Notes: a model not told the origin generated them from the letters alone. DNA of 64,000 nt from a virus (IMGVR_UViG_3300044901_000083:3740-67739); one strand, 5' to 3'. Positions 12,358 to 38,801 are shown, counted from the stretch's first letter. Made by a program: numbers and translations.

Positions 12358-13857
12358 TCACTCGGCAGTGAAGGGGCGCCACACGGCCTTGGACGGCAGC
12401 ACGTTCTTGATGTAGCCGTGGTGCTTCGGCTTGGTGATCCGCAGGTAGCCGAACAGGAACTGGAACCAGCTGATCACCGGCACGCCGCCGATGCCGAACG
12501 GCAGCGGGATCTTGGTCATCGGCTGGAACTGGCGCCAGCCGATGGCGTCGGCACCCGGCGACAGGTTCAGCAGCGGCACCTTCACCGTGCCGGGGATGTC
12601 GCGGTTGCGGTCCACGTAGGTCGTGGTCGCGCCGGTCTTCTTCACCACCGCCATCAGGCGGAAGTTCGCCGTGGTGTTGTCGCCGTTCTGCTTCGAGCGG
12701 AAGATGCGGTAGCCGGTCTCGGTGGTGGCCGCCGACTGGGTGATCGTCAGCGTCACGGCCTGGCCCGCCGTCACCGCGATCTGCGCGCTCTTGGTGACCT
12801 GGGTCATGCCCTCGCCGTTGGCGCCGATCGCCTCGACCGCGTAGTAGTAGTTGCCGGCGCGGCTGGCGGTGAACATCGACTGCGAGTCGGAGCCGGCGCT
12901 GCCGGTCAGGCTGGCCGGCTTGAACGCGACGTTGGCGGTTGCGGTAGAGGAGAACGTCACCTCGAACGGCGACACCATCGGGTGGCCCTCGTCGTGGATG
13001 AACGTGTCCTCGTTCGTCTTCAGCACGCCGCCTTGCAGGCGGATGCCTTCGACGTGGCCGCCGATCATCGGCGTGTTGTTGCCGCCAGGCATCCAGCGGA
13101 ACGCCGGATCCAGGTTCTGGTTCAGGTCGTTCTGCACGCTCAGCGGCAGGAACACGTCGGTCGAACGACCCCACGAGCCGTAGCGGCTGACCGCCACGTT
13201 CACCTGGGAGAACGGCTCGACGGTGTTCAGCGGCTTGCCGTCCATGTCGATCACGCTGTCGCCGGCCATGTCGCCAGCGGCGATCGCGGCGTCGATCTCG
13301 GCGAAGATGCCGTTGAACTGCGTCGGGCTGGCCGCGGCGTTGCCGTGGAACAGCAGGTACTCGGCGTCGGTGAGCAGCTGCAGAGCGCCGTTGCGCTCCT
13401 CGACCGCGGTGGCGTCGGCGATGTTCTTGCCGATGTTCAGGACGTAGCCGACCTGACGCAGCGACATCAGGAACTTCACCAGACCGACTTCACGGCTGTA
13501 GTCGCCCTGCGCCGCGCGCACGACGCCCATCTGGGTGTTCGTGCTGCCGCCGAGGAAGCCGCCGATGTTGTTCTGGCGGGTGTACTCGTCGACGATGTTG
13601 GTCGCGTTGGTCTTCTGCAGGCGGTTGAACAGCACGAAGTGCTGGTTCTCCTGGATCGTGGTCTTCATCGCCGTGTCCAGCGACTGCACGCCCAGCGCAC
13701 CACCACCGGTCAGGGTGGCGACGTCGGTCTGGTAGTCGCTGGCCTGCAGGGCTTTCTGCAGCTCCTCGAATGCCGCAAGGGCGCCGCCTTGCGAGCCGCC
13801 CAGGGTCGGGATCGCGCCACCAGGAGCGACACCGGAGAATTGGTTCAGGATGTTCAT
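12358..13857 (-). CDS. Major capsid protein (SPO1/K/A511-like)
   Basis: 499 aa; GGALGVQSLDTAMKT, EYLLFHGNAAASPTQFNGI, WRQFQPMTKIPL; follows protease and scaffold. Confidence 0.85.
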   Translation of the reverse strand: MNILNQFSGVAPGGAIPTLGGSQGGALAAFEELQKALQASDYQTDVATLTGGGALGVQSLDTAMKTTIQENQHFVLFNRLQKTNATNIVDEYTRQNNIGGFLGGSTNTQMGVVRAAQGDYSREVGLVKFLMSLRQVGYVLNIGKNIADATAVEERNGALQLLTDAEYLLFHGNAAASPTQFNGIFAEIDAAIAAGDMAGDSVIDMDGKPLNTVEPFSQVNVAVSRYGSWGRSTDVFLPLSVQNDLNQNLDPAFRWMPGGNNTPMIGGHVEGIRLQGGVLKTNEDTFIHDEGHPMVSPFEVTFSSTATANVAFKPASLTGSAGSDSQSMFTASRAGNYYYAVEAIGANGEGMTQVTKSAQIAVTAGQAVTLTITQSAATTETGYRIFRSKQNGDNTTANFRLMAVVKKTGATTTYVDRNRDIPGTVKVPLLNLSPGADAIGWRQFQPMTKIPLPFGIGGVPVISWFQFLFGYLRITKPKHHGYIKNVLPSKAVWRPFTAE

Positions 13858-13900
13858 GTAGTCCTCTCGTGAGTCCTCGTTGCGGTGTTGCTCGTGACCG

Positions 13901-14554
13901 TCAGGCGGCGGGCACGATCTTCTGGATCAGCGCCGGTTCGATCGCCCAGCCGTTGCGCAGGCACACGTCGACCGTGTTCAGTTCGCGGCCGGTGAGCTTG
14001 CCGGCCTCGAATGCGGAGTTGGCTTTCAGCATGAACTCCTGCGGAGTGATGCCGTCCTGCTGGCCGCCCTTGGCGAGCGTGGTGTCGGTCTGCTTCTCGG
14101 TGACGACCACCGTGGCCTTGCGACCGCGGCCTTCGCCGCCGAGCTTCTTGACCTGCTCGGTGAGCGACTTCAGCAGGTCGCCCTGCTGCTTCAGGATGGC
14201 CGACTGGCTCTTGATCAGCGCCACCGCGCCGCCCAGCGCCTTCGCCATCGTGCCTTCGGTGGCGTCCAGGCGATCGGTCAGGGCCTTCACCAGGGCGGTG
14301 CCGTCCTCGGCTTCCACCTCGGTGCCGTCGGCGAGCTTCACCTTGAAGGACTTCGCCATCGGCTCGTCCTTGTCTTCGCCGCCCTTGTCGTCGGCGTCCG
14401 CGTTTTCCTGGCTCTTGTCGTCGCCGTCCGCAGCAGCGGCTTGGATCTTTTCGTCATCCTCGCCATCCGCCGTCGGGAGCGCTTTCGCCAGGGCCTCGTT
14501 GTCCGCCGTCAGACCTTCGATGTCCTTCAGCAGATTGTCGAATTGACCACTCAT
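13901..14554 (-). CDS. Scaffold protein
   Basis: Acidic/helical 217 aa between protease and capsid; seven K-A/K-S sites. Confidence 0.7.
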   Translation of the reverse strand: MSGQFDNLLKDIEGLTADNEALAKALPTADGEDDEKIQAAAADGDDKSQENADADDKGGEDKDEPMAKSFKVKLADGTEVEAEDGTALVKALTDRLDATEGTMAKALGGAVALIKSQSAILKQQGDLLKSLTEQVKKLGGEGRGRKATVVVTEKQTDTTLAKGGQQDGITPQEFMLKANSAFEAGKLTGRELNTVDVCLRNGWAIEPALIQKIVPAA

Positions 14555-15435
14555 GGATTGCTCCGTTTGTTGAGACCGTTTTTCAAATCGCGCAGAAAGC
14601 GCTCCACGTACTCGGCGGCCTCGTCATGAGACATGCCGAACCGCTCCACGGCGTGGGCGACCAGATCGCCCGCGCGAGGATTCTTCACAGCGCCAGACCG
14701 AACTTCGCCGGCCAGCTTTTCGCGGAAGTCCCAGTAGCTGGAGACGCCGCGATCCAGGGACTGCATGCCGAGCGCCGCGCCGCCGGTTTTGGCGCCGGCG
14801 TCGGTGGCATAGCTGGCTTCGAGGGCCTTCACGATCACGAAGCCGCCCAGGGCCTTCGTGAACGTGCCCACCGGCGCGGTGCTGACCGTACCGACGGACT
14901 TGTTGACCGGCGTGCGCGACAGCGCCGTGTTGTTCCAGCGCACGCGCTCGATCACCGCAACCTTCTCGCCGGTGACCGGATCGAGCTTCACGCTCTTGGC
15001 GAGCACCGCACCGCCGACGCTCGGGTACCAGCTCGCCGGCGGCTGCTGCTTGGTGATGCTGTCCCACACCATGTCGGCGTTGCGCGCCATCGCGCTGGAG
15101 CCCGAGTAGAGCTCTGCCTTCACAAAGGTGCGCTTGCCGTTGACCTGCACCTCGCACGGCTTGCCGACCTCGTACTCGTGGTAGTTCGGAATGCCGGCCT
15201 TGGCGCCGATGACCGTGAAGTGCTCCAGGTCGATGTTGCCGTGGCGCAGGTAGTAGTCCGACGAGGCCTGCAGCGCCTTCTGCAGCACCACCTCGTTTTG
15301 GTGGTCGCGGTCCTCGTTGCTGGCCTCGAAGTAGAGAATGCGCCGCCCGCCGTCCTCTGACGGTGTGGCTTTCAGCAGGCCGCCGACCGAGATGAACTCG
15401 GGCACGGCAGCCAGCAGGTCGGCGTCTTGCAACAT
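14551..15435 (-). CDS. Prohead protease
   Basis: ASNEDRDHQNEVVLQKAL, GNIDLEH, SVGG; position typical of herpes-fold prohead proteases. Confidence 0.75.
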   Translation of the reverse strand: MLQDADLLAAVPEFISVGGLLKATPSEDGGRRILYFEASNEDRDHQNEVVLQKALQASSDYYLRHGNIDLEHFTVIGAKAGIPNYHEYEVGKPCEVQVNGKRTFVKAELYSGSSAMARNADMVWDSITKQQPPASWYPSVGGAVLAKSVKLDPVTGEKVAVIERVRWNNTALSRTPVNKSVGTVSTAPVGTFTKALGGFVIVKALEASYATDAGAKTGGAALGMQSLDRGVSSYWDFREKLAGEVRSGAVKNPRAGDLVAHAVERFGMSHDEAAEYVERFLRDLKNGLNKRSNP

Positions 15436-15441
15436 GCGCGC

Positions 15442-15457
15442 AGCATGTCGTCACGAC
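15442..15457 (-). promoter_or_regulatory. Late-type promoter motif
   Basis: GTCGTGA-CGA-CATGCT, 6 nt before ATG 15435. Confidence 0.7.
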
Positions 15458-15482
15458 TCATGCGACGTGTGCGCGCACGCAC

Positions 15483-16177: not shown

Positions 16178-19100
16178 TCAAAAAAGATCAGCGTTCGCAA
16201 CCTGCCGTTGCTTCAGGTAGTACGCCACACCGGTGTCGTCCAGGCCTTCCATCGGGCTCGTCATCAGGTCGCGCAGGCCGTACTTCTTCTGCAGCCGGTC
16301 GCGCGCCTTGTGGATCTCCGGGTGATCCGGCACCGCGTCGATCAGCTCGACGTCGTTCTTCTGGCCGGTGCGGAAGATGCGCCCGCGGCGCTGCGCATGC
16401 GTCATGGCCGTGTCCGGCGTGTCGGCCTGGTACAGCCACTGCCCGCGCTGCAGGTTCATGCCGGTGGCGCCGGCGTCCGAGGCCACCAGGATGTCGGCCT
16501 CGGCCTCGCCCTTCTCCGGCCGGAACATCAGCCGCTTGCGCTCCTTCTCCTTCGCGCTGTCGGCTCCGGTGATCACCACGACGCGATGGCCTTCCTTCTT
16601 CAGCCGCTCGGCGATCGTCTGCACCTGGCGCAGCGAATGCGCGAACACCACGCCGGGCTTGCCCTTGCGCTCGGCGGCGTGCTTGGCGATGTCGTCGAGC
16701 ACCGGGTTGTCGGGGTGTTCGTTGATCACGCGGCGCACCGCGGCGGACTTCAGGATGCCGAGGTTCTTCTGCAGGTCTTTGGCGACGGCCTCGTGCTGGT
16801 CAGCTGGAACGCCGTCGAATGAGCCGGGCGAGATCGCTTTCATCGCGTCGACCGCCACCTTCCCCTGCATGCGCGCCATACGCGCCGCCGCGAAGTTCCT
16901 GTCGAGCTCGCCGAGCGCCTGGCGCTGGCCGGCGGACAGCGGCAGCTTCGATTCCTTGCGGTCGGCGCGCACGTCGGGGTCGATCTTGCTCGGGTAGACG
17001 TGGCGCGCCATCTCGCGCTTCAGAGCGTCCTTGGCCGCCAAGGTGTCGGCGCCGTAGCGGCGCATGAACGCCGCGCGGTCGTTGTAGCGCGCCGGGTCCA
17101 TCTTGCGCAGCAGGTCGAACACCTCGCTGGCGTCGTTTTTCACCGGGTCGCCGGAGGCGAGCAGGTAGTTCGGCGTGTGGTGCGACAGCGCGTCCACCAC
17201 GTTCGCCAGGCCGCTGTTCTCCTTCCCGGCGCGGTTCAGCACGTTCTGGCTCTCGTCGACCGTCAGGTAGTCGAAGCTGATGCCCTCGCGCTGCAGCTGC
17301 TCGCCCATCCAGGCCTTGCGCTCGTCGTCACGCATCGCGCTGACACGATCGGCCATTTCCTGCTCGCTGATGCCGGCATGCTTGGCGCCCAGGTGCATCA
17401 TGTCGTCGCGGAACGACTGGTGCGTCATCACGGCGAAGTGCTTGGCGGGATCCTTGTAGGCGGCGATGCGCTCCTCGCGGCTGGCGCCCGGCTCGCAGTG
17501 CCAGCTGAATTTGCCCGGCTCCAGGTAGCGCAGCGCCTCGCCACCGAACTGCCCCTGCACCACGCTCGGCACCAGGAACAGGCCGCGCTTGGCCTTGCCC
17601 TGCTCGTGCAGGTGCGTGAACGCCGCCATCTGCAGCAGCGTCTTGCCGCTGCCGGTGCCGAAGGCGGCCACCACGCGCTTGTTGGCGTCGACCAGCTTCA
17701 CCAGTCGCTGACGCGCGGCGTTCTTGCCGCCGCTCATCGTCGGCTCCCAGAGGCGCAGCGGCTTTCCGGGTTTGAAGTTTGCGCCCACCTTTCCCATCAT
17801 CCCGGCGATCTGCCGCTCGGCGATGTGGCCGATGGTGTGTCGCTCGTCGCCGGAGAGCTCGATCGGCTTGTCGGCGCCGACGGCCTGCGGCGCCTCCTCG
17901 GCCGAGAAGAATCCCATCTGCGCCTGCTCGAAGGCCTCACGCTGCTCGCGCGCCGCGTCCAGCTTCTCGCTGACGCTGCCGGAGGCATAGCGGCCGTCCG
18001 CGCGCTCGCGCAGGCTGTCCACCAGGGCGCGGTGCTGCTGCTCGCGCCGCTCGCGCGCCGCCGGATCGGTGGCGTCGAGGTGGCGCAGGTTGTTGCGGAT
18101 CACCGTCTTGCCCACCTTCAGCGGCGCATCCGGCTTCAGCCGGTTGTGGTGCTCCACGAAGGCCTTGCCGACCTTCGACTTGATCAGATCCTGCACCGCC
18201 TCGTAGGCGCGCTCGTGGCCGCCCATGGCCGCGGTGTACTTGGACCAGTCGAGCGACGCCGCGTTGACCTGGCCGGCCAGCTCGTCGCGTCGCGCGCGCC
18301 ACTCGCCATGCTCCGGGTTCGGCACCGTATCGCCGAACATATCCGTGGTCTCGGCGGCCGGCTCGGCCGCCTGGTGCTGCTCCAGCTCGCGCCGCAGCGC
18401 GCCGGCCTCTGGCGATTCATTGGCGATGTGCTGGTAGAAGTGCTCGCGCAGCGCGCGCTGGTCCTCGTGCGTCAGCTCGCCGATCTGCTTGTAGGCGGCC
18501 ACGCCGTCCGGGTGCTCGGCCAGGGCCCGGTGCAGCGCGTCCACCGCCTTGTCGTTCACCTCGAACTGCTGGCGGTGCAGTGGCGCTCGCGCGCCGCCAT
18601 GCCGGCGCTGCACGAACTCGTCGGCCAGCTGGTTGAAGTGCTCGGCCAGCGCCTCGGCGCGCTGCATCTTGCCGTCCTCACCCTTCAGCGGCGCCACAGC
18701 GTCCAGCGCCTGACGGTAGGACTCGGCACGGTCGAAGCCGACGCGCTGGAAGAAGTCGGCCGACTGGATGTCGGCCACGATGTCGCCCGGCGCGTCGCCG
18801 TCGGCCGCCCGGCCGCCGATGTAGTCGCGCAGGGCCTGCTCCAGGTTGTCGCCGGGCTGGAACGGCTCGGCCAGGCGCGGAGCCACGCCGGGCTTGACGT
18901 CCATCACCAGGTCCGGCCGGCGCGCGACGCCCTGCGGCAGCCAGCCGTCCTCGTCGTGGTCGCCGCGGATGATCGCCAGGTTGCGCTGCACCTGCTCGAT
19001 GTCCGCGCGCGCGATCGGCTTCGCCAGGCGGTCCAGGCCCTCGGCGTTGACGGTCAGGAACGTGTCGCCGGCGACTTGCTCGATGGTGTAGTCGCCGCGC

Positions 19101-20755
19101 TGCAGTCCGATCGCGCGCACCTGGGTGATGGCCGATTCCATGCTGGCCTTGCCCAGGCTGACCTGGAAAGACTCTTTACGCCCCTGCTTTAGCGCCACCA
19201 CCAACGCGGCATTGGCCTCCATCTCGCCCAGCGCCTGGCCGAGGATCTTCTGTGCGTCGCCGACGGCGCGGCGCCGGCGCGCGTTGAGCTCCTGCGCCAC
19301 CTGCAAGTCGGCGCCGGTGGCCGCCTCGCCGAGCTCTATTTCCTTCGCAGCGTCCATCAGCTCGCGCGCCTGGCCCAGCGCCTCGGCGCTGGTGTCCATG
19401 TAGTGGTGCAGGTGGAACTCCTGCACTCCCTCTGCGATGCGCTCCACCTGATCGGGCAGGTCGCCGTGGATGCGCCGCGCCAGCACCTGCGCCGCGCCGG
19501 CGATGCCCAGCACGTCCACCACCGAGCGGTCGACCAGGGCGTCGCCGCCGACGGCCAGCGCCAAGGAGTTGATGGAGTTGTAGGCGCCGACCCCCACGTG
19601 CTTCCCCAAGGTCTCGCTCGGGTCGCCGCCGGCGATGCGCTGCAGCTCGGACAAGAACGCGCGGGTCTGCACCGTGCGCAGGTCGTTGTTCAGTTCCTCG
19701 GCGATCTTGGCGTCCAGCTTCTCGTCCGGCTCGGCGGTGTACTCCAGCACGTAGGCCTTCGGCTCCGCGGTGGATTTCTCGATCTCCGCGGCCGCGGCGC
19801 GCGCCTTCTGCTGGATCTGCTGCAGCTGCTTATGCGCCTTCAGCAGCTCGACCGCCTTCTTGGCGTCGGCCAGGTCGGCGGCCGCCGCCGGCGCGGCCGG
19901 CTCGCGCACGCCCTGCAGCTCCTGCTTCACAAGCTTCGCGGTCTCGCCGCGCTCGACGGCCGCCTTGCGCTGGCCGGGCGTCATCTGCTCGCGCTGCGCA
20001 GCCTTCGCCTGCTCGGCCTCGGCCTTGATCTCGTCGGCTGTCGCGCCGGCGGCTTCGGCTCGCTTCTTGTAGTCGGCCGCGAAGCCCAGGCCGCCCGGGT
20101 TGTCCTGGATCGGCGCCAGATCCTGCACCGACAGCGTGGCGTCGTCCTTGGCATCCAGCGGCACCTCTCCGATGCCGGCTTCCATGCGCGCGGCGTGATC
20201 GGTCACCAGGCGCTGGCGTTGCAGCTCGACCGCCTCGTGCGCGCGCTGCAGCAGCGTGCGGTGGTGCTTCTGGCGCAGCTTTGCGACGGCCGCCTCCGAC
20301 AGGTGCTCGTAGTCGGCCTCCGGAAACTCCAGCGCGCTCGGATCCCAGCCCATGGTTCGCGCCACCGTCTCGACGAACTGGCGCTCATGTGCGCGCTGCT
20401 GCTGGCGCAGGCTCTCCCGGGCCTTGTTCTTCGACTCCAGGATGCCCGCCTCTTTGTCGCGCTGGCGCTGCTCCTTCGCGGCCTCGGCCTTGGCCTTCTT
20501 GCGCACCTCGGCCTCGCGCTTGTACTCGCTCTCTTTGCGGACGCCGCGCAGCTTCAGGTAGTTGAGCTTGCCGCCGGCGCCGCCGATCACGTGCGCCGTG
20601 CCGTCAGGGTTCGGCTGTATCAGCACCGGCTGCCCCTCGGTGCCGGGTCCGTTCGGGTGCACGGTGATCCAACGCGCGCCCTCGGGGATCTTCGAGGCCT
20701 TGAGGAGATCCGACGGCTTGAGGAACAGGACGGGGCGGTCTGCCGGCAGCTTCAT
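16178..20755 (-). CDS. Large SNF2-family helicase/ATPase, probable internal head protein
   Basis: AFGTGSGKT, TVDESQ, ILVASDAGATGMNLQ, QRRGRIFR. Confidence 0.85.
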   Translation of the reverse strand: MKLPADRPVLFLKPSDLLKASKIPEGARWITVHPNGPGTEGQPVLIQPNPDGTAHVIGGAGGKLNYLKLRGVRKESEYKREAEVRKKAKAEAAKEQRQRDKEAGILESKNKARESLRQQQRAHERQFVETVARTMGWDPSALEFPEADYEHLSEAAVAKLRQKHHRTLLQRAHEAVELQRQRLVTDHAARMEAGIGEVPLDAKDDATLSVQDLAPIQDNPGGLGFAADYKKRAEAAGATADEIKAEAEQAKAAQREQMTPGQRKAAVERGETAKLVKQELQGVREPAAPAAAADLADAKKAVELLKAHKQLQQIQQKARAAAAEIEKSTAEPKAYVLEYTAEPDEKLDAKIAEELNNDLRTVQTRAFLSELQRIAGGDPSETLGKHVGVGAYNSINSLALAVGGDALVDRSVVDVLGIAGAAQVLARRIHGDLPDQVERIAEGVQEFHLHHYMDTSAEALGQARELMDAAKEIELGEAATGADLQVAQELNARRRRAVGDAQKILGQALGEMEANAALVVALKQGRKESFQVSLGKASMESAITQVRAIGLQRGDYTIEQVAGDTFLTVNAEGLDRLAKPIARADIEQVQRNLAIIRGDHDEDGWLPQGVARRPDLVMDVKPGVAPRLAEPFQPGDNLEQALRDYIGGRAADGDAPGDIVADIQSADFFQRVGFDRAESYRQALDAVAPLKGEDGKMQRAEALAEHFNQLADEFVQRRHGGARAPLHRQQFEVNDKAVDALHRALAEHPDGVAAYKQIGELTHEDQRALREHFYQHIANESPEAGALRRELEQHQAAEPAAETTDMFGDTVPNPEHGEWRARRDELAGQVNAASLDWSKYTAAMGGHERAYEAVQDLIKSKVGKAFVEHHNRLKPDAPLKVGKTVIRNNLRHLDATDPAARERREQQHRALVDSLRERADGRYASGSVSEKLDAAREQREAFEQAQMGFFSAEEAPQAVGADKPIELSGDERHTIGHIAERQIAGMMGKVGANFKPGKPLRLWEPTMSGGKNAARQRLVKLVDANKRVVAAFGTGSGKTLLQMAAFTHLHEQGKAKRGLFLVPSVVQGQFGGEALRYLEPGKFSWHCEPGASREERIAAYKDPAKHFAVMTHQSFRDDMMHLGAKHAGISEQEMADRVSAMRDDERKAWMGEQLQREGISFDYLTVDESQNVLNRAGKENSGLANVVDALSHHTPNYLLASGDPVKNDASEVFDLLRKMDPARYNDRAAFMRRYGADTLAAKDALKREMARHVYPSKIDPDVRADRKESKLPLSAGQRQALGELDRNFAAARMARMQGKVAVDAMKAISPGSFDGVPADQHEAVAKDLQKNLGILKSAAVRRVINEHPDNPVLDDIAKHAAERKGKPGVVFAHSLRQVQTIAERLKKEGHRVVVITGADSAKEKERKRLMFRPEKGEAEADILVASDAGATGMNLQRGQWLYQADTPDTAMTHAQRRGRIFRTGQKNDVELIDAVPDHPEIHKARDRLQKKYGLRDLMTSPMEGLDDTGVAYYLKQRQVANADLF

Positions 20756-20761
20756 GCCGGC

Positions 20762-20777
20762 AGTGTCGGGTCACGAC
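20762..20777 (-). promoter_or_regulatory. Late-type promoter motif
   Basis: GTCGTGA-CCC-GACACT, 6 nt before ATG 20755. Confidence 0.7.
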
Positions 20778-20780
20778 GGG

Positions 20781-21161
20781 TCAGCGATCAGCCCACGTTG
20801 GTGGTCGGGCGCTCGGTCGGCTTATCCTTGTTTGCGGCCGCCACAGGCGCACGTACTCGCCGGCCTTGCGGGTTGCTTCCGCGTCGGCTGGCTTCGGCAC
20901 GCCGCGCGCAGGGGTCACCTCGTGGTGATCGAACTCCATCTCACCGTGCTCGTCGTGGCGCACCACGGACTTGCCGTTGCGCTCGCCGACGAACTTGCCT
21001 AGCGCCTTTTTGCCCGGCTTCTTCGGGTGCGGGAAGAACACATGAGCGCCCGCCTTGTGCTTGGCGCCTGGCCGTCGGTCGTCGTGCGGCTTGACCGTCG
21101 TCCCGTCCTTGCGGGTGTAGCCCTCGACGTGCGCCTTCAGGAACAGGACGATCTTGCTCAT
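20781..21161 (-). CDS. Small basic probable head protein
   Basis: Start MSKIVLFLKAHVEGYTRKDGTTVKPH at 21161. Confidence 0.65.
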   Translation of the reverse strand: MSKIVLFLKAHVEGYTRKDGTTVKPHDDRRPGAKHKAGAHVFFPHPKKPGKKALGKFVGERNGKSVVRHDEHGEMEFDHHEVTPARGVPKPADAEATRKAGEYVRLWRPQTRISRPSARPPTWADR

Positions 21162-21182: not shown

Positions 21183-21508
21183 GCCGGCCCCGCATCCGGG
21201 TCCACCAGCAGGAAGGTGCCGCCGCCGGCAGGATCCGGCACCTCGGCCGAGCCGAGCCCGAAGCTGGCGTTGCGACGATACTCCTCGATCGCCGCGGCCA
21301 GAGCCTCCTGCAGGTCGGTGTGCGGCGGCATGCGCGCGCCTGCGTCGGCCGGCATGTAGTCGCCCAGCAGGTGCAGGTTGTCGCGGGTGTAGAACTGCTT
21401 CAGCAGCGCCTTGATCAGCCACCAGTAGGCGCCAAAGAATCGATACCGCCTCGGATCCTGCTGCAGCAGCTGCAGCGTGTTGGCCGCCAGGGTCTTGGGG
21501 TCGATCAT
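21176..21508 (-). CDS. Hypothetical protein coupled to DarB-like gene
   Basis: 110 aa; ATGA overlap with upstream stop. Confidence 0.6.
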   Translation of the reverse strand: MIDPKTLAANTLQLLQQDPRRYRFFGAYWWLIKALLKQFYTRDNLHLLGDYMPADAGARMPPHTDLQEALAAAIEEYRRNASFGLGSAEVPDPAGGGTFLLVDPDAGPAS

Positions 21509-24500
21509 GCGGCCTCCTTCTGCGGCTCGGCATCCTGGTGCGCCTCGGCGATCAGCTGCCGAAGCGTCTTGCCGGTGTCGTTGTTCCAGGAGAGCACGCC
21601 ATAGCCGCCGGCCGGTATCCGCGCATCGAGCAGCTTCTCGTCGGCGATGCCGGCCTGCTCTGCCATCTGCAGCATCGTGCGCAGCACCGCGGGATCGTAG
21701 ATGTGCGAGTGCCCAGGCCCCGGCTTTCCGGTCCTGCTCAGGGACGCCAGCGCCACCTTCGGATCGGCAACGCCTGCCTTGGCGCCTGCCACGTCGATCG
21801 CGGCAGCCAATTCCTTGTGCTCAGAACCGTGAGCCAGCAGCGACAGACGATGATGCACCGACAGCGGCGTACTCGACGAGTATTCGTTCCCATGGTGCGC
21901 GTACCGCGCATGCACTGGCACCATGCGGTCGCCGTAGCTCTTTTCCTGCGGCACATGGCTATCGAACGGGCTGTGCAAAATCCCCTCGTGCTTCGCCCGG
22001 GCCCACAGCGTCGCCAGGGCGCGGCGGTTCCACTTCGGCTTCTCGGTGACGCCGTAGCCGCCGCCGATCGTGCCCACCAGGGTATAGGCCTCGCGCAGCG
22101 CATCGGCGAACGTTGGCGCGCGGCGGATTCGCTCGACCTGCTCGCGCTCGAAGCGCTGATGCGCCTGGCGCTCCAGACTGGCGACTCCGATGCCGGTCTG
22201 CTTCTCCGGGCTCAGGTCCCGCAGCACGCTGTTCCATGGGTTGTGGCCCTGGCTGTTGTACGGCGCCTCTGGGTACTTGACCCGAGGCACCTGCTCGCTG
22301 CGGCTGTTCTTGCGCTTCTGGATGTATTCGTGGCCGAACTTCTTGCCGCGCTCGGCCGACATCCAGGCCTGCAGCACCTTCTCCTTCGCCGCCTCTGTTG
22401 GCAGCAGGTAGTCGTGCGTGTCGTGCAGCTTGGTGTGCTCGTAGCTCTCGGCCATCTTGAGCTCGCCGGTCGCGCGATCGACCATCGGCACCGAGCCGTA
22501 GGGCATGTTGAACTTGTAGGCCTTGGTGCCGTCCTTGATCTGCTGCTGGATGAGCTCGTGGTTTTGCTCCAGCACCGAAGATGGCAGGTTCTTCACGTCC
22601 TCCCACTTCGTGAGGCCGTTCAGTTTCTCAGAGGCCGCACGCTCCATCTGCACGCGCACCTCGGCCGCCTCGGCGTCGGCATCGTGCTTGAACGGCTTGA
22701 TGTCGGCCGCGAGCTCCTTCAGCGGCACCGTCACCGGCCGCCGGCCGGTGGTGTCGGCGTAGGGACGCATCGTCACCGTGCCGGCGCGCGCGTTGACGCC
22801 CGACACCACGAACTTGCCCTCGGCGCCGTAGTCCAGGCCCACACCGGCGTGCAGCGCGGTGCCGCTGCTCGGCTCGATCAGCACGTCCGTGGCGCTGTCG
22901 AGCGCCGACTTGGCCGGGAAGTAGCGGTTGTTGAACAGCGCCGTCTTCGCGGCCTCCAGGCGCTGGCGCAGCCGGGTCGCGCTGGCGGTGCCCTTGTTCT
23001 TCAGCGCGCTGTAGCTGCGCGTCATCTCCTGGAAGCGCACGAACTGCTCGTTCGCGGCCACGCGCTGGCCGGCGTCGTAGCGCTGCTGCGCCGCGGCCTT
23101 GTCGGCCTCGTAGGCGGCGCGCGCCGCCTCGGGGTCGGCCGCCAGCATGATGCGCAGGTCTTCGCGGCTGAATTGGCCCTCGCGCGCCAGATTCTCGACT
23201 CGATCGCCGCCGTTCCACAACAGATCCTGCCAGTCCTTCTTCGCGCGCACCGACTGGTAGCGGTAGCCGTCGAACGACCCCTTGGACAGGTAGGTGTGGA
23301 TGCGCACCGCCTCGTTCAGGTTGCCCTGGCGCAGGCCGCGGCCATTGCGCTGCTGCAGCGTCGCCGGCTCCCACGGCACGTCAGCGTGGTGGACGTCGGT
23401 GGTGCGCTTCTGCATGTTCAAGCCTTCGGCCATCGTCGCGTTGCCGATCACCACGTCCAGCTTGCCGCTGTTCAGTGCGTCGGCGATGTTCTGGCGCTTG
23501 ACGGCGCTGCCCGCCACCTGCGCATTGATGATGCCGATGCGCTTTCGGGGGATGCCGGCGTCCACCAGCGCGGCCGCCAGGCGTTCGTGGCTGTCGATGT
23601 ACTCGCTGAAAATGATCTGCGCACCGTCCTTCAGGCCCGCCTTCGCCTGCTCGGCGATGGCGTGGTACTTGGGGCTGTGCGCGCCGGCGTGCTCGGCGTC
23701 GAGGAGCTGCAGGTCGAGCGCCGCCTTGTTCATCTTGTCCATCACGGAGAAGATGTGGGCGTCACCGGTGGCGTCCTTCTCTGACGCCTTCTCGGCGAGC
23801 TCGCGCAGGCCGACGTACACCTCCTGCTGCTTCGGCGTCATGTCGACCAGGTGCATCTGGTCGTTGCGCTCGGGCAGCGTCAGCCCCACCTGCTCGGCCG
23901 TGCGCCGATCGATGAACCGCGCCATGATCTCGCGCAGCTCGTTCAGGTTCTTGAAGCCGGACACCACCAGGGCGTCCTCGATGTCGCCCTTGGTGGACAG
24001 CACCTTGTCGTTCGTGAACTCGCAGAAGCGGTCCAGGAACTCCTCGCTGTTGCGCACGCCTATCTTCTCGAAGGCCTCCGGCGCGATGTGCGACAGCATC
24101 GAGTAGATTTCGAGCGGGCTGTTCTTGGTCGGCGTGGCCGTCAGACCGTAGACCCCACGGCCCTCGTTCTGCTCGCGCACCCAGCGGGTCTTCAGGTTGA
24201 AGTCCAGCGCGCGGTTGCTCAGGCCCTGGCCGCCGAGGAATTTCGGCTGCTCGCCGAAGCGCGCCTTGGCGGCGTAGAGGTTCTTCTGGTGGTGCATCTC
24301 ATCCGCGATGAGCATGTCCACCCCGAGCTGGTCGAACCAGATCGCGTCGGTGCGGTCCTGGAACTCGCGCGAGGCCACCGCCTGCTCGTACTGTTCCTTG
24401 ATCCGCTTGCGGCGCTTGTCGCCGGCGTTGCCGAGCGCGTCGCCGCGCTGCACCCAGAAGTCGTCGCTGTAGTAGCGCTCCTTCAGCTCCGGGTTCAGGT

Positions 24501-27450
24501 CGACTTCCTCGAACGCCGGCTCGCTGATCAGAACGAAATCGTAGTCGTTCTGCGTCAGGTCGTGGTACTTGCGCTTGCGCTCGCCGGCGTCGTCGTCGCG
24601 GCCGACCAGCTCGCCGTCATCGTCGTAGTGGAAGTTGGCGCCGATGGTGAGCACGCGCGAGCCGGGGAACCAGGACTGCGACTCGGCGAACCAGTTGGCG
24701 AGCACAGACTTCGGCACCACGATGATCGGCTTCTGTGCGCGGCCGTCCATCTTCGCCATGCGCGCCAGCAGCAGGCCGCCCAGCGTCTTCCCAAGGCCCA
24801 CGTCGTCGGCTATGATGCCTTTGCCCATCGCCAGGGAGCGGCGCAGGCTCGACCAGCGCCAGCTGCGCACGTCGCGGTCAGTGGTGAGGCCTGGCACCTC
24901 GATCGGTGCGTCGCTGAACTCGCGCGCCACGAAACCGCGGAATTTGCGGTTGTAGAGCTCCTCAACCGCCTCACGGTACGGGCTGCCGCACAGCCATTCC
25001 TTGAATGACGCGTTCCACTCGTCGATCGTCGGCTTGTCGTCTTTCTTGACGCCGGTGCGGTTCAGGTACTTGTCGAGCAGCTTGGTGTCGCCCCAGGTGC
25101 TGCCGCCAGCCACCTCGTAGACGCCATCGGCGAACTTGATCGAGACGGGCGGCTGCTTCTTGGTCCACTCGTTGGCGGCCGGGCCATCCTGGTTGCGCCA
25201 GGTGAAGTAGGCCTCCAGCACGTGCAGCGGGATGAACGCGCTGTTGACCTGGAAGTCCACGTCGTCGAGCGACTTCGGATCGATCACCTCCTCCAGGCGC
25301 TTGGCCTGCAGCTCCAGCTTGTCCTTCAGCGCGCCGCCGGCGGCCAGCGCCGCGCGCGCGGCGTCCAGCTTCGGCCACAGCTCGCCGGTGAGGTAGACGT
25401 CCATCGTCGTCCAGCGGTCGCCGCCGAGATAGGCATAGCGCGCGTCGGCGGCCAGCTGGTCGGCCACCTCGTCCACCGGACGGCCCAGGCGCTCGGCCAG
25501 CTCGGTCGCGGTGAACTCGCCGCGCTCGTCCAGCGCCAGCGCCTGCGCGTGGCTGTCGAAGGTGCCCTCCACCTTGCGCGGCGCCTTGCCGAGCACCGCG
25601 TCGGACAGCTCGCCCTTGCGGTTGACGGCGCCGATCAGCCGGAACAGCGTCTTGTCGACGCTGGCCGCGGTCATCAGCTCGGGGTTGGCAGCCGGGATGC
25701 CGTGCTTGGCGACGTAGGCGCGCACCGCGTCGGCCAGGCCCTCGCGGTCGCCGCCGGCCATGGCCGCTTCGATGCGCTCGGCCAGCGGCGCGGCGTCGGC
25801 CACGGCGGCGGTCGCCATGAACTCGTCGACGCGGTGCCAACGCGGCGGGTTGCCCTGCAGCACGTAGGTGATGCCGTCGACGGTCTTGGTGTCGCCCACC
25901 TTTGCCGTGTTGGCGTAGGGCCGGCGCATCGCGCCGGACAGCGCAGCGTCGCGCGCGGAGCCCTCTGGCAGCACCTCCAGGATCTGCGGCACCGTCAGAT
26001 CGCTGACGCCGACGCTCTCCGGGTGCGGCGCGAACTCGGCGATCGCCTCCGGCACGCCGAACATCGAGCCGGTCACAGTGATGTCGTTGCCGATGCCGGC
26101 CTTCGCGCGCCAGCCGGCCTCCAGCGTGCCGAGCACGTTGCCGGCGCCGCGCCCGTCGGTGAAGTAGGTGCCGGCCAGGAAGTCCTCGTCCCAGACGCCC
26201 AGCTGCTTCAGCACCGGCTGCGGCAACGTCGCCAGCGCGCCGGCCACGTCGTCGGGCCGCTTGCGCAGGTAGATGACGTCGGTGGTCACCTCGGTGTGCG
26301 AGTGCTCGAACGCGGTGTTCGGCATGCGCTGCGCGCCGAGGAACTGCGCCTTGGTCAGGATCTGCTCGCGCAGCGCGCGGTGGCGGCTGCTGTCCATGAT
26401 GCCGGTGGGCACCACCAAGGCCACCAGGCCGCCGGCCTTGCACTTGTCGAGCGCGGTGTCGACGAAATAGGCCTCCGCGGTGGTGATGCCCACCTTGTCG
26501 TCCTTCGCGAGGAAGCCGCGCGGGCCGTAGGGCGGGTTGCCGATCACCACGTCGAACTGGCGATCGTCGGTGGTGGCGAAGCGCTCCAGGCTGGCGGTCT
26601 GGATCTCGTGTCGGTCGCCGTGCAGCGCCAGCGCGACGGCGGCGCTGGTGGTGTCGAGCTCGACGCCGGTGCCGCGGAAACCGTCCGGCGCCGCGTGCAG
26701 GAACACGCCGGTTCCGCAGCTCGGCTCCAGGAAGGTGCCGCTCTCGGCGCCCAGGCGCTGCAGCGTGTTCCACATCGCGCGGGCCACCGCCGGGTCGGTG
26801 TAATACTCGTTCAGCGAGTCGCCGCATCCGCCGTTTCCGCTGTACTGGCGGAACAGCGTCAGGTCGGTCTGGCCCTCGGCCACCAGCTGCGCGACCTTCG
26901 CGTTGATCTCGCGGCGCTGTGCCTTGCTGATGCCGGCCGGCACGCCGAACGGCGCGGCGCGGTCGTGCGATGTTGGTGCCGCAGGCGCTGGCGGCGTGAT
27001 GGGCGCCGGCAGCGGCTCTGGAGCCGGCGCCTCGGCGACAGGATTCGGCGCTGCCTTCTTGCGCGGTGCGCGCTTCGGCTTCGGAGCCGGCGCCTCCTGC
27101 TTGTACTCGGCGAGCTCCTTCGCCTGCTTCTTCGCCTCGGCCTTGTCGTCGGCATGGCTGGGCGTCTCCAGTACGTGCACCAGGCGCTCGTGCTCAGCGA
27201 TCGCCTGCTGCCGCGGCATGGTCACGGTATCAGCCGCTGGCGCCGGTGAGTGCTCGAACAGGTCGAGCGTTTCGCCCTTCTTCGGCTCAGGCTTCGTCGC
27301 GGCGCGTGCCGGCGCGGCCGGTTGATGCGCGCGCACCTTCTGCATGCGCACGTGCGGCGCCACCACAACGCCATCCTTGCGGACGTGCGGCGCGACGTGC
27401 ACCGGCGCGTCGAACAGAGCGGCCTGCGATTTTTTGAGGAAGATGATCAT
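21505..27450 (-). CDS. DarB-like N6-adenine methyltransferase + SNF2 helicase
   Basis: FLEPSCGTGVF, VIGNPPYG, DDVGLGKT, ADEMHH, EGLNMQ, QRNGRGLRQGN; 1981 aa; same architecture as P1 DarB. Confidence 0.85.
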   Translation of the reverse strand: MIIFLKKSQAALFDAPVHVAPHVRKDGVVVAPHVRMQKVRAHQPAAPARAATKPEPKKGETLDLFEHSPAPAADTVTMPRQQAIAEHERLVHVLETPSHADDKAEAKKQAKELAEYKQEAPAPKPKRAPRKKAAPNPVAEAPAPEPLPAPITPPAPAAPTSHDRAAPFGVPAGISKAQRREINAKVAQLVAEGQTDLTLFRQYSGNGGCGDSLNEYYTDPAVARAMWNTLQRLGAESGTFLEPSCGTGVFLHAAPDGFRGTGVELDTTSAAVALALHGDRHEIQTASLERFATTDDRQFDVVIGNPPYGPRGFLAKDDKVGITTAEAYFVDTALDKCKAGGLVALVVPTGIMDSSRHRALREQILTKAQFLGAQRMPNTAFEHSHTEVTTDVIYLRKRPDDVAGALATLPQPVLKQLGVWDEDFLAGTYFTDGRGAGNVLGTLEAGWRAKAGIGNDITVTGSMFGVPEAIAEFAPHPESVGVSDLTVPQILEVLPEGSARDAALSGAMRRPYANTAKVGDTKTVDGITYVLQGNPPRWHRVDEFMATAAVADAAPLAERIEAAMAGGDREGLADAVRAYVAKHGIPAANPELMTAASVDKTLFRLIGAVNRKGELSDAVLGKAPRKVEGTFDSHAQALALDERGEFTATELAERLGRPVDEVADQLAADARYAYLGGDRWTTMDVYLTGELWPKLDAARAALAAGGALKDKLELQAKRLEEVIDPKSLDDVDFQVNSAFIPLHVLEAYFTWRNQDGPAANEWTKKQPPVSIKFADGVYEVAGGSTWGDTKLLDKYLNRTGVKKDDKPTIDEWNASFKEWLCGSPYREAVEELYNRKFRGFVAREFSDAPIEVPGLTTDRDVRSWRWSSLRRSLAMGKGIIADDVGLGKTLGGLLLARMAKMDGRAQKPIIVVPKSVLANWFAESQSWFPGSRVLTIGANFHYDDDGELVGRDDDAGERKRKYHDLTQNDYDFVLISEPAFEEVDLNPELKERYYSDDFWVQRGDALGNAGDKRRKRIKEQYEQAVASREFQDRTDAIWFDQLGVDMLIADEMHHQKNLYAAKARFGEQPKFLGGQGLSNRALDFNLKTRWVREQNEGRGVYGLTATPTKNSPLEIYSMLSHIAPEAFEKIGVRNSEEFLDRFCEFTNDKVLSTKGDIEDALVVSGFKNLNELREIMARFIDRRTAEQVGLTLPERNDQMHLVDMTPKQQEVYVGLRELAEKASEKDATGDAHIFSVMDKMNKAALDLQLLDAEHAGAHSPKYHAIAEQAKAGLKDGAQIIFSEYIDSHERLAAALVDAGIPRKRIGIINAQVAGSAVKRQNIADALNSGKLDVVIGNATMAEGLNMQKRTTDVHHADVPWEPATLQQRNGRGLRQGNLNEAVRIHTYLSKGSFDGYRYQSVRAKKDWQDLLWNGGDRVENLAREGQFSREDLRIMLAADPEAARAAYEADKAAAQQRYDAGQRVAANEQFVRFQEMTRSYSALKNKGTASATRLRQRLEAAKTALFNNRYFPAKSALDSATDVLIEPSSGTALHAGVGLDYGAEGKFVVSGVNARAGTVTMRPYADTTGRRPVTVPLKELAADIKPFKHDADAEAAEVRVQMERAASEKLNGLTKWEDVKNLPSSVLEQNHELIQQQIKDGTKAYKFNMPYGSVPMVDRATGELKMAESYEHTKLHDTHDYLLPTEAAKEKVLQAWMSAERGKKFGHEYIQKRKNSRSEQVPRVKYPEAPYNSQGHNPWNSVLRDLSPEKQTGIGVASLERQAHQRFEREQVERIRRAPTFADALREAYTLVGTIGGGYGVTEKPKWNRRALATLWARAKHEGILHSPFDSHVPQEKSYGDRMVPVHARYAHHGNEYSSSTPLSVHHRLSLLAHGSEHKELAAAIDVAGAKAGVADPKVALASLSRTGKPGPGHSHIYDPAVLRTMLQMAEQAGIADEKLLDARIPAGGYGVLSWNNDTGKTLRQLIAEAHQDAEPQKEAA

Positions 27451-27559: not shown

Positions 27560-28435
27560 ATGGCGCACACCATGTCGCTCTCAGATTCCACGTACAGGCA
27601 CAAGGCCAGCGAAACAGAAGTTTCGCTAGTCAATGACGTCAATATATTCTCGATCAAATCCCTGAAGGGTGAGGTGGAGCACGAACTAAAAGGCGTTCAC
27701 AGCTTCGCTATTTCTCCGAATCTCCAGACGACAACTCCGGCGTCAGAAAACGGCGGTCGATTCAATGATATTGAGTGGGGTCCAAACCGATTCACGTATC
27801 TACCGCCCGGCGTCAAATTGAAGGCCGTTAGCCTTGTGGAAGCCGACACAGTTTATTTTGTTCTGCCTGACCGGATATTTGGGCCGGCCGCATTCGAGAC
27901 CGTGAACGTGGAGAAGCTGGAAAGAAAATGGGTCTATAACGTAGATGACCCGGTGGCATTAGATTTGATGAATGCCGCCTCGAAAGTCGCCAAAGACGAC
28001 GGCGCCAAGAACTGGCCTCTGCTGGTGGAGTCGATCGGAACCGCTTTGTCCGTGCGCGCCATGCAAGCCATGGGCGCGCAGCCGCTGCGGGGTGACGTCC
28101 CGTATCCGAGCGGCCTGTCCAGCGAGCGACTGCGCCGCGTTGTTGACTACGTAGAGGCCAACCTGCATCGCGCGATCCTGCTCACCGAGCTCGCGGAAAT
28201 CGCGGCCCTGAGCCCGTTCCACTTCTCCCGCGCGTTCCGCAAGGCCATAGGCCGGACGCCGGTGCGCTACGTGTGGTCGCGCCGTGTCGAGCGATCGAAG
28301 CGCCTGCTGCGTGATCGCGTCCTGCCGTTGGCCGCGATCGCGTATGACTGCGGCTTCTCCAGCCAGAGCCACTTCACGACGGTGTTCAAGCGGGAGACCG
28401 GTGTCACGCCGCTGCGGTATCGGGCCGGGCTTTGA
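27560..28435 (+). CDS. AraC-family transcriptional regulator
   Basis: RLRRVVDYVEANL..LAEIAALSPFHFSRAFRKAIG..IAYDCGFSSQSHFTTVFKRETGVTP. Confidence 0.9.
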   Translation: MAHTMSLSDSTYRHKASETEVSLVNDVNIFSIKSLKGEVEHELKGVHSFAISPNLQTTTPASENGGRFNDIEWGPNRFTYLPPGVKLKAVSLVEADTVYFVLPDRIFGPAAFETVNVEKLERKWVYNVDDPVALDLMNAASKVAKDDGAKNWPLLVESIGTALSVRAMQAMGAQPLRGDVPYPSGLSSERLRRVVDYVEANLHRAILLTELAEIAALSPFHFSRAFRKAIGRTPVRYVWSRRVERSKRLLRDRVLPLAAIAYDCGFSSQSHFTTVFKRETGVTPLRYRAGL

Positions 28436-36814: not shown

Positions 36815-36831
36815 CCATGGGAGGAATCAGC

Positions 36832-37083: not shown

Positions 37084-37412
37084 AGCGCTACCTGCCCATC
37101 ATCCCCGTGCTGGCCGTCATGATCGGCTTCGGTGCCGGTAACGCGCCGGAAGCCGCCTCGCAGTCGGCGCCGCTGGTGCGCCAGGCCGTGGCCGAGCCGC
37201 ATATGTCCGGCATCTACGGCGGCTGGTCCGTGGTGCTCTACAAGAACCGGCGCTGCACGATGCCCGAGGTGGTGGAGGTTGTGCCGAACGCCCGCGAAGG
37301 CGTGTACGGCGCCAACATCCACCTCTGCGGCTGGGTCGACGGCGAGCACGTGTTCGCCGTCACCGAGGGCGGGACCAAGATGGTGATCCCGCGCGCCGAG
37401 TTCATCGAGTAG
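37080..37412 (+). CDS. Secreted hypothetical protein
   Basis: MKRYLPIIPVLAVMIG signal peptide; ATGA overlap. Confidence 0.6.
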   Translation: MKRYLPIIPVLAVMIGFGAGNAPEAASQSAPLVRQAVAEPHMSGIYGGWSVVLYKNRRCTMPEVVEVVPNAREGVYGANIHLCGWVDGEHVFAVTEGGTKMVIPRAEFIE

Positions 37413-37415
37413 CGA

Positions 37416-38801
37416 TCAGGCCTTCACCAGCAGCAGGCCGGTGCGCGGGGCCAGCGCCTCGACGCCGGCCGCCTGGCCGTTGTTGACGCCAGGATCCTGC
37501 GCGCCGGCAAGGCGACGATAGCCGGTGCAATCGTAGCTGCCAGAGGCGGTCTTGCTCGTGTTCACCAGCACGAGGCCGTTGGTGAACCTGCGCACGCTCA
37601 GCACGCCGGACAGCACGGCCGGTCCCATCGAGTCGCCGAGCGGCGCGTCGTACTCGTCGAACCACAGCGGCTCCTTCATCGTCGGCTCGCTGTAGCCGTA
37701 GTAGCCGTCCTCCTGCAGCGCCGAGCACAAGCCGAAGCGCATCGCCGCGTAGTCGGTGGCCGCGCCGTAGGCCTGGAACGTCACCAGGCCATGCGTGGCG
37801 GCCGCGGCGAGCGCGCCGCGGTAGCGCGTCATCATCGCGGACCACCCGCCCCAGGTCTCGGGAGACCAGCTCTTGCCCAGCTGGCCCTCCAGGAAGCACC
37901 CGTTGAGCACGCCTGGGTAAAGCTCCGGCGCGTCCACATTGCCCATCACCAGCCTGCCCGGCAGGCGCGCGCGCAGCTCGGCGAAGTAGGCGGCGTAGCC
38001 AGCGCGCATCGCCTCGCTGGCTGCCTTGTCCTTGGCCGCCACGTCGATTCCGTTCTGGTACCAGTCCGCCGGCGTGCGCGTCAGGCCGTACACGTTGTCG
38101 ATCCAGGCGATGTCGAACGGCACCGATGCCGGGAAGCACCTGGCGGCGTCGAACTCGGCTCGCACCTGCGGGTAGCGCCGGCCCTGCGCGTCTGGCCGCG
38201 TGGCCGCGGTGCAGTTCACGTCGAAGTGGTTGAAGCCGGGTTGCTGGGTGATGATCACGCCGGCGGCCGTGCGCAGCCACCAGTTGTTCGCGTTGACGGC
38301 ATCGAGCAGCGGCCCGCGCGCATCGCCTGCGGCCAACGTGGTTGGCAGGTCCACCAAGCTGGCGTAGTTGGAGACCAGCATCTTCGGGTTGGCCTTCTTC
38401 AGGCCTTCGACGAGGGTGCGCATGCGCGCCTCGCCATAGCTGGGCCAGAGGCCGAGGTGCACGAGCCCATACTTCGACAGCGCCGCGATGCGATCGGCTT
38501 TGTCGTTGCCGGAGTAGTCGACGATGGCGACCTTCGGCTTCGCGTAGACGGGAGGTGGCGGCGGCGGCACGGGCACCGGCGCAGGAGCGGGCGGCTCCGG
38601 CGCGGGTTCAGGCGCTGGTGGTGCGGGCGGTGGTGCCGGCGGCGCAGGCTCGGGCTCAGGAGGCGGTGGGGGTGGAGTGGGGTCCGGCTCGGGTGCCGGG
38701 ACCGGTGCCGGCGGCGCGGGCGGGGTCTGCTGCTGCTCCAGCTGCTCGACCTGCTTCTGCAGCCAAGCGATGGCCGCCTTGATCAGCGCGATGAGTTCCA
38801 C
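37416..38801 (-). CDS. Putative glycoside hydrolase (TIM barrel) with Pro-rich stalk
   Basis: AMRFGLCSALQEDGYYGY, WFDEYDAPLG, RRFTNGLVLVN, FDIAWIDN; N-terminal helix and PAP/PEP linker. Confidence 0.65.
   Translation of the reverse strand: MELIALIKAAIAWLQKQVEQLEQQQTPPAPPAPVPAPEPDPTPPPPPPEPEPAPPAPPPAPPAPEPAPEPPAPAPVPVPPPPPPVYAKPKVAIVDYSGNDKADRIAALSKYGLVHLGLWPSYGEARMRTLVEGLKKANPKMLVSNYASLVDLPTTLAAGDARGPLLDAVNANNWWLRTAAGVIITQQPGFNHFDVNCTAATRPDAQGRRYPQVRAEFDAARCFPASVPFDIAWIDNVYGLTRTPADWYQNGIDVAAKDKAASEAMRAGYAAYFAELRARLPGRLVMGNVDAPELYPGVLNGCFLEGQLGKSWSPETWGGWSAMMTRYRGALAAAATHGLVTFQAYGAATDYAAMRFGLCSALQEDGYYGYSEPTMKEPLWFDEYDAPLGDSMGPAVLSGVLSVRRFTNGLVLVNTSKTASGSYDCTGYRRLAGAQDPGVNNGQAAGVEALAPRTGLLLVKA

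Follow-up and report, generated by a model that had tools for sequence, protein, structure and literature searches.

A lysine-ended hydrophobic leader as a candidate capsid-targeting and maturation signal in PHB04-like myophages

The 64,000-nucleotide stretch of viral DNA IMGVR_UViG_3300044901_000083:3740-67739 (hereafter the window) carries on its minus strand, between 12 and 42 kb, the head module of a PHB04-like myophage, many of whose proteins share a short hydrophobic peptide that ends in Lys and is followed by Ala or Ser. A preliminary description had proposed that this peptide, (V/I/L)LFLK|A (the bar marks the presumed cut), is a portable tag that loads enzymes into the head, and all of the peptides that it quoted were found, on the minus strand. 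The pattern is genuine and conserved, and it is linked to the site of head maturation. Judged by sequence, it falls into two classes of site: a minimal form, (D/E)-L-x-K|(A/S), on structural proteins and at some inter-domain joints, and an extended, greasy tag on enzymes that would be carried as cargo. The motif is probably the Lys-type counterpart of the capsid-targeting sequence (CTS) of bacteriophage T4, a signal by which proteins would be loaded, clipped and injected; we infer the cuts, the loading, the receptor and the injection alike from sequence. The motif sites are likely cuts of the prohead protease, the tagged proteins likely travel in the capsid, and the chances that the greasy run is itself the address are about even.

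The enrichment is confined to the head module and to the greasy forms of the motif. Two hydrophobic residues followed by K-[A/S] occur 18 times in 16 head-module proteins, against 3.9 expected (none of 500 shuffles reached 18), and the form with three hydrophobic residues occurs 7 times, against 0.9 expected from shuffles. The 30 other proteins of the window stand at chance level (6 against 3.2 for the two-hydrophobic form, 1 against 0.8 for the three-hydrophobic form), and the tag is absent from genes outside the head module, in a late-versus-early comparison limited to the contents of the 67.7-kb contig. Neither the bare dipeptide nor a loose form with a single hydrophobic residue ahead of K[AS] shows much enrichment, if any (22 against 16.7); hence the initial list of motifs mixes two classes of site. 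When all six frames of the contig were scanned for a start codon with three hydrophobic residues, K, and A, S or G within the next 13 residues, the only matches came from the cargo genes and one internal site in the protease. Recent duplication of DNA was considered as the source of the shared heptapeptide RPVLFLK and was ruled out, since the codons of the four tag copies in the window differ at synonymous sites; selection thus acts on the peptide.

Relatives were gathered by alignment of the protease, which yielded 156 related IMG/VR stretches, of which 80 loci were kept, and the cultured phages PHB04, ST4, ECML-606-1, Touem01 and Mecenats66 were compared as well. Across the 80 loci, N-terminal matches to the pattern number 104 on the strand of the genes and 14 on the opposite strand, and all five cultured phages bear the leader on their own, often different, cargo, which includes NUDIX hydrolases, an HD hydrolase, and proteins of 1,200-2,250 residues; a large tagged ST4 protein is annotated as an ADP-ribosyltransferase. 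Sixty-four distinct cargo N-termini give the consensus (K/R)-P-(I/V/L)-L-(F/L)-(L/I/F)-K|(A/S), with a median leader of 9 residues (range 5-19). Counted back from the Lys at P1, P3 is F or L in 62 of the 64 tags, P4 is L in 44, P6 is P in 22 and P7 is K or R in 26, while the invariance of K at P1 and of A/S at P1' follows partly from the construction of the search. Tagged proteins carry SNF2/helicase, RadC, Zeta_toxin, PBECR2, InPase, NUDIX, HD_4 and methylase domains according to Pfam, and the same consensus heads at least ten unrelated domain families in the 80 related contigs and the five cultured phages. Each of the 31 distinct helicase N-termini places a 7-19-residue leader immediately ahead of the conserved start IPxGARWITVHPNG, and the tag is kept at orthologous N-termini in phages with 40-60% protease identity. 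The clade that uses it most likely comprises the ~90-kb myophages PHB04, Dolphis, ST4, ECML-606-1, Touem01 and Mecenats66, and more than 100 uncultured contigs.

The K|(A/S) end of the cargo tag matches the maturation site of the major capsid protein (MCP). K35|A36 of the window MCP aligns exactly with K24|S25 of phage phi812 (5lii, full length) and with the LNK|A site of SPO1 Gp6.1. Entries 9row, 9rox and 9roz of the Protein Data Bank (PDB) hold a 439-residue chain whose first residue is, by alignment offsets, S25, and by this alignment the chain is the form expected from a K|S cut; the exact correspondence of the sites and the start of 9row at S25 corroborate the cleavage at K|S that had been noted for capsids of the K/A511 type. 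Among 62 distinct MCPs of the clade, K at P1 and L at P2' are found in all, L at P3 in 60, and either A or S at P1'; the propeptide is itself variable, with 28-38 residues. In the scaffold-like protein, K24, K68-S69, K129-S130 and K177 are invariant in six phages (26-46% identity), and the portal C-terminus K|(A/S)FG(L/F)P is kept in the five cultured relatives. The portal tail (K|AFGLPVF...) and the linker of the zeta-family kinase (K|AFGRRPVLF...) are alike; the cargo tag may be an imitation of the portal tail, or the portal tail of the cargo tag.

The capsid site ELQK|A and the scaffold and portal sites had been listed as copies of the VLFLK tag, and they form instead the distinct minimal class. 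Cargo leaders possess a run of four or five hydrophobic residues, often with K/R-P before it. As the structural sites use only (D/E)-L-x-K, the greasy run would hold information beyond what is needed to cut the capsid, and because the capsid is evidently matured from a minimal site, the extra greasy residues probably serve a purpose other than cutting. This inference from sequence comparison is the main case for an address function.

In the protease, residues K22, A23, H72 and S139 are invariant in 41 sequences, H72 and S139 being the candidate catalytic His and Ser. Its AlphaFold2 model (pLDDT 74) has T4 gp21 as top Foldseek match (5jbl, E 1e-5, probability 1.0), with weaker matches to the herpesvirus assemblins (HCMV, HSV, KSHV and PrV proteases), and is thus predicted to adopt a T4 gp21 or assemblin-like fold; a sequence search of the PDB with the protease gave no match, so that this likeness comes from the fold search only. 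Protease residues 177-233 resemble residues 4-66 of the MCP (blastp E 4e-8), and protease residues 51-58 form a second, near-identical stretch, LQKALQAS. In 42 distinct phages, the likeness of the protease and MCP arms is 0.68 within a phage and 0.61 between phages (0 of 2000 permutations), which suggests co-evolution or gene conversion between the two genes. AlphaFold2 predicts disorder for the arm copy, which is possibly the protease's own route into the prohead. A complex prediction for protease residues 23-294 (41-row alignment) with the tagged N-terminus of the 126-residue protein (6-row alignment) scored 0.00 and had no controls, and it speaks neither for nor against binding.

The cargo proteins of the window, listed with the other features in Table 1, differ in how the tag is placed. 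In the SNF2 leader, LLK|A is the plausible cut because Pro follows the first VLFLK. The leader of the DarB-like protein is retained in its orthologues in PHB04, at locus L059 and in Thermus phage Lalka27b, where it ends in LLAK|A. P(A/T)MIK|A ends the InPase domain in all relatives examined, whether solo or fused. In Mecenats66, the N-terminal module of the zeta-family kinase is encoded separately, by a gene that follows the portal gene, and the PHB04 kinase has LLFFK|A at the equivalent joint. At the place of the 126-residue tagged protein, PHB04 has an unrelated gene annotated as Ulx-like, ulx being among the partner genes of the P1 Dar system (with hdf, darA, ddrA and ddrB). The GHL15-family hydrolase is an ambiguous member of the set: LIALIK|A stands at residues 3-9, the final residues are LLLVK-A, and a long Pro-rich linker is present. 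The LIK|A noted earlier at its N-terminus does exist, but it lies in a predicted amphipathic helix, and its meaning remains ambiguous.

Table 1. Head-module features and motif sites of the window (positions counted from its first nucleotide)
Feature	Position	Strand	Basis or remark
Head-module genes: small and large terminase, GHL15 hydrolase, portal, zeta-family kinase, metallophosphatase, MuF-like minor head protein, InPase, 1,981-residue methylase and SNF2 protein (DarB-like), 126-residue protein, 1,525-residue SNF2 helicase, protease, scaffold, major capsid protein	12-42 kb	-	
Major capsid protein	12358..13857	-	phrog_752 (major head protein), E 9e-99
Predicted 35-residue MCP propeptide, end ELQK|A	13753-13857	-	Site K35|A36
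Scaffold-like acidic protein	13901..14554	-	Assigned by position; seven K[A/S] sites with hydrophobic P2 or P3
Prohead serine protease	14551..15435	-	phrog_1028 (head maturation protease)
Protease copy of capsid N-arm, after VK|A	14737-14907	-	Residues 177-233; compare MCP residues 4-66, 13660-13848
Protease 22-residue N-terminal leader, end LLK|A	15370-15435	-	Predicted site K22|A23
Small four-cysteine protein	15908-16165	-	Signal-peptide-like N-terminus
SNF2-type helicase cargo	16178..20755	-	Pfam Helicase_C, ResIII, SNF2-rel
SNF2 leader, VLFLK-P then LLK|A	20696-20755	-	Tag
126-residue cargo protein	20781..21161	-	9-residue leader IVLFLK|A at 21132-21161
Basic arm of 126-residue protein, HVxGYTRKDGTxVxxH	21072-21131	-	Directly after leader
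DarB-like methylase and SNF2 helicase cargo	21505..27450	-	Pfam N6_Mtase, Eco57I, SNF2-rel, Helicase_C
Second basic arm	27343-27402	-	
DarB-like leader MIIFLKK|S	27430-27450	-	Tag; quoted peptide 27427-27450
AraC-family regulator gene	27560-28435	+	
InPase cargo	28404..28949	-	Pfam InPase, E 5e-49
InPase C-terminal copy, MIK|A then LFLK|A	28407-28460	-	Tag
InPase N-terminal leader ILLLK|A	28929-28949	-	Tag
Minor head protein, MuF-like by position	29615..30772	-	Mecenats66 homologue annotated putative minor head protein
Minor head protein K|[A/S] at ~residue 25	30695-30721	-	Site kept in PHB04, ST4, ECML-606-1, Touem01
Zeta-toxin-family kinase cargo	33140..34735	-	Pfam Zeta_toxin, E 6e-23
Zeta double site YIAK|AFG...VLFLK|A	34370-34429	-	Internal joint of N-terminal ~110-residue module and kinase
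Portal protein	34732..36474	-	Pfam Phage_portal
Portal C-terminal tail VVAK|AFGLP	34735-34791	-	Site
GHL15-family hydrolase	37416..38801	-	Pfam GHL15, E 8e-16; tag-like peptides at both termini
GTCGTGAY + 14 nt + ATG	15433-15457, 20753-20777, 30770-30794, 31715-31739, 36472-36496	-	Upstream of protease, SNF2, MuF-like, metallophosphatase and portal genes

The tag also marks the joints of larger proteins. At four loci (L040, L047, L068 and L016) the helicase is fused behind other modules (RadC, InPase or uncharacterised), and each fused helicase has a K|[A/S] site of the minimal kind exactly before its conserved start, while split cargo genes each have their own leader. A phmmer search with the 126-residue protein against 1.84 billion protein representatives matched 124 clusters, mostly over residues 3-40 only. 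The leader is joined there to a basic arm, HVxGYTRKDGTxVxxHxDK, in a module of ~30 residues that occurs in 95 of the 124 clusters, with 70 N-terminal and 50 internal copies, and that no Pfam family covers; its presence at N-termini and joints alike, together with the one consensus before so many domain families, upholds the claim that the tag is portable. These library proteins measure 76-1,931 residues, and the module lies just after their InPase, PBECR3, LPD3, Acb1 or DUF6900 domains. In the form HVxGYTRKDGTxVxxH(E/D)D(K/S), the arm comes after the tag in many cargo proteins as well as at internal joints; it is found twice in the window and in library proteins P0007, P0028-P0031, P0040 and P0043, and could be a DNA- or core-binding hairpin. 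In P0040 (1098 residues), 20 residues separate an Acb1 (anti-CBASS) domain from the tag module that comes after it, and there is another module at residue 935; a known anti-defence enzyme would thus occur as tagged cargo. No viral contig was found with the Acb1-bearing protein as query. Locus L090 has three tag modules beside a portal gene whose product is 62% identical to that of the window.

These observations can be brought together in a working model. Expression of the late head-module genes would be followed by retention of the accessory enzymes in the core of the assembling prohead through their 5-19-residue leaders, the scaffold or the protease being candidate receptors. The serine protease, with its predicted gp21 fold and invariant H72 and S139, would then cut after Lys in hydrophobic-x-K|(A/S), taking off the 35-residue capsid propeptide, fragmenting the scaffold, and trimming both itself and the portal tail; on the cargo, leaders would be clipped and the modules of polyvalent fusions separated. 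The matured enzymes, namely the DarB-like methylase-helicase, the SNF2 helicase, the InPase and the zeta kinase, would remain inside the head and be delivered into the host along with the DNA; in relatives, NUDIX, HD, RadC, PBECR and Acb1 proteins would join them. A wider proposal, which is put forward tentatively and with slightly less than even confidence, is that a large and so far unstudied clade of proteobacterial myophages uses a two-level address code, which may extend further, to the Thermus Lalka phages and 95 metagenome protein clusters. The minimal Lys site would serve structural maturation, whereas the greasy-Lys leader, often with the GYTRKDGT arm, would be a self-contained cassette that loads enzymes into the capsid, allows fused enzymes to be separated, and lists the injected anti-defence proteome from sequence (DarB-like, Acb1, NUDIX, InPase); the protease would be addressed separately, through its co-evolving copy of the MCP N-arm.

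Several points weigh against the working model. Full tags are also present at internal joints of large proteins, and since an address is needed once per polypeptide, the greasy run could simply be a better substrate for the protease. A cut at the C-terminal copy in the GHL15 hydrolase would remove one residue only, and the metallophosphatase, a 181-residue protein and two small proteins of the head module are tagless. The Lys specificity of the protease is deduced from conservation of the sites and from homology to the K/phi812 capsid site, and the searchable literature offered no virion proteome, N-terminal sequence or packaging assay for any clade member, nor a paper describing this leader; the Mecenats66 paper has no proteomics, and the phage 812 neck paper makes no statement on head cleavage. 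That full tags are internal, and repeated within one polypeptide, favours an explanation in which the motif is a processing site only, a preferred substrate through which the protease trims proteins or separates modules, loading being left to the basic arm, the folded domains, the MuF-like or portal proteins, or DNA binding. The conserved arm right after many tags could be the real anchor, and in phage P1 the first 30 residues of DarB suffice for capsid loading and the first 9 do not (PMC9024508). Still, we consider this unlikely, as the structural substrates would be cut at far less hydrophobic sites, which argues that the greasy run is not required for recognition; moreover, the helicase family is tagged but lacks the basic arm, and each split module regains its own leader.

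The C-terminal copies in the GHL15 hydrolase and in the InPase tail, which make poor sense as cut sites, and the K-AFG with hydrophobic stretch common to the portal tail and the zeta linker would suit an uncleaved anchor: a short hydrophobic strand would fix cargo permanently to the inside of the capsid wall, to the portal or to a partner, with K-A/S being incidental. Such an anchor is improbable in view of the P1 and P1' residues of the 64 tags, invariant if partly through the search, and of the retention of K and A/S at the sites of the capsid, the protease and the scaffold, for which the role established in the K/phi812 lineage is cutting; in addition, leader length varies while the residues after the K are the conserved start of a domain. 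A hydrophobic N-terminus with a basic residue before it also recalls an export or membrane signal (Sec, Tat, lipoprotein or membrane anchor). This candidate is highly improbable: the core has just 4-5 residues, where at least 10 and a signal-peptidase site would be expected, Lys stands at -1, there is no AxA and no lipobox, the cargo consists of nucleic-acid and nucleotide enzymes of up to 2,000 residues, and the same peptide is found at internal joints. Chance, composition or miscalled start codons, to which the near-expected counts of the loose forms might point, were tested and rejected as a negligible prospect on the strength of the shuffles, the strand asymmetry, the conservation at orthologous N-termini, and the support for the starts. 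The latter comes from the GTG start of the InPase gene, which overlaps the upstream stop codon (GTGA), and from fixed upstream motifs: GTCGTGAY, 14 nt and ATG are found before five genes (0.26 matches expected), and GTCGTGAT lies 13 nt upstream of the start of the 126-residue gene, supporting its start call. None of the genes preceded by GTCGTGAY has a Shine-Dalgarno sequence at its start, and the element may be a late promoter or a short-leader start signal.

The guanine-cytosine (GC) content of the window is 66-70%, and the gene order of the head module agrees with that of PHB04. The window MCP is 76% identical to that of Bordetella phage PHB04 and 64-73% identical to those of Aeromonas ST4, Pseudomonas Jeremy and Dolphis, Yersinia fHe-Yen8-01 and E. 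coli ECML-606-1; remoter matches are found in the Thermus Lalka phages and in several hundred Staphylococcus and Bacillus phages of the SPO1/K type. Pfam and PHROGs served to check the gene functions, and they placed the tag, the basic arm, the scaffold and the MuF-like protein in no named family. Midway through the cargo block, the AraC-family regulator gene is encoded on the opposite strand and converges on the end of the InPase gene; AraC/RhaS genes are likewise found near the cargo genes of ST4 and Touem01. The small four-cysteine protein is encoded just upstream of the protease, a position that is kept in PHB04, ST4 and Touem01.

Should the tag act as proposed, a simple sequence rule would predict which enzymes are carried in the capsid and injected across the whole clade, whose hosts include Bordetella, Pseudomonas, Escherichia, Yersinia, Aeromonas and Morganella; the cargo would represent anti-defence and host-takeover factors of the first minute, which are difficult to identify by other means. 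Split and fused polyvalent proteins would be two states of one system, since, if every module boundary were a protease site, gene fusion or fission would leave the matured products unchanged. The leader would also offer a second natural packaging tag, of ~9 residues and chemically unlike that of T4, which could be tried in phages of tractable hosts such as Pseudomonas putida and E. coli. A cut after Lys would escape ordinary tryptic proteomics, which may be why it went unnoticed.

Each of the systems to which the tag can be compared shares part of its features. The capsid protein is homologous to those of SPO1, K, phi812 and A511, with the cut position exactly aligned; in those phages, however, Lys cleavage is described for the capsid only, no account of a cargo tag having been found in the searchable literature, whereas the hosts here are Proteobacteria and the DNA has 67% GC. 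As in P1, a DarB-like methylase and helicase of ~2,000 residues stands beside the head genes and an N-terminal signal is implicated; the architecture (N6 adenine methylase and SNF2-type helicase) is shared, with 34% identity to P1 darB by tblastn over residues 160-456. The Dar proteins of P1 have no consensus among them, and the P1 capsid protein is cut after Glu, at E120|S121 (PMC9024508). The first 60 residues of P1 DarB are without a hydrophobic-K|A leader, and no signal like its residues 1-30 was seen here.

The survey of polyvalent proteins by Iyer, Burroughs, Anand, de Souza and Aravind (2017) predicted their packaging and proposed autoproteolysis by MPTase domains, according to its available portions (PMC5512222). 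The repertoire in those portions corresponds to that of the tagged proteins and their relatives (InPase, Zeta_toxin kinase, methylase-helicase dyad, PBECR2/3, LPD3, RadC and NUDIX), also beside portal and MuF genes; the same portions describe neither a prohead-protease site nor a leader, and the modules here are mostly split genes, each with its own leader. In SPN3US and phiKZ, ejection proteins carry propeptides of 111-130 residues that are cut at A-x-E by the prohead protease, and a propeptide has also been proposed to target the protease itself (PMC7411985, PMC5694885). N-terminal propeptides on head-internal proteins would be a common trait, with loss and ejection reported there and presumed here, but the present leaders have 5-19 residues and would be cut after K.

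The closest parallel is the CTS of T4, a sequence of 10 residues, present on the internal proteins (IPs) IPI, IPII and IPIII and on Alt (Mullaney and Black 1996, as reviewed in PMC9026906 and PMC7411985), that targets these proteins to the core and is removed by gp21, its targeting and processing residues being separable (PMC9026906, PMC7411985). In both systems leaders of about ten residues head unrelated, head-linked proteins, here 64 tags on at least ten families, and end in the predicted cut site of the cognate protease, K|(A/S) being common to capsid, protease, scaffold and portal and suggesting its specificity. The protease is modelled with the same fold, and processing at both termini, as in Alt, is proposed for the InPase. 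There is no sequence similarity to the leaders of the IPs: T4 cuts after Glu in (L/I)-x-E, whereas the cut here would follow Lys in hydrophobic-x-K|(A/S), and the cargo consists of large polyvalent-protein modules in which the tag doubles as an inter-domain joint. By analogy, the tag is most likely a Lys-type form of the capsid-targeting leader known from T4.

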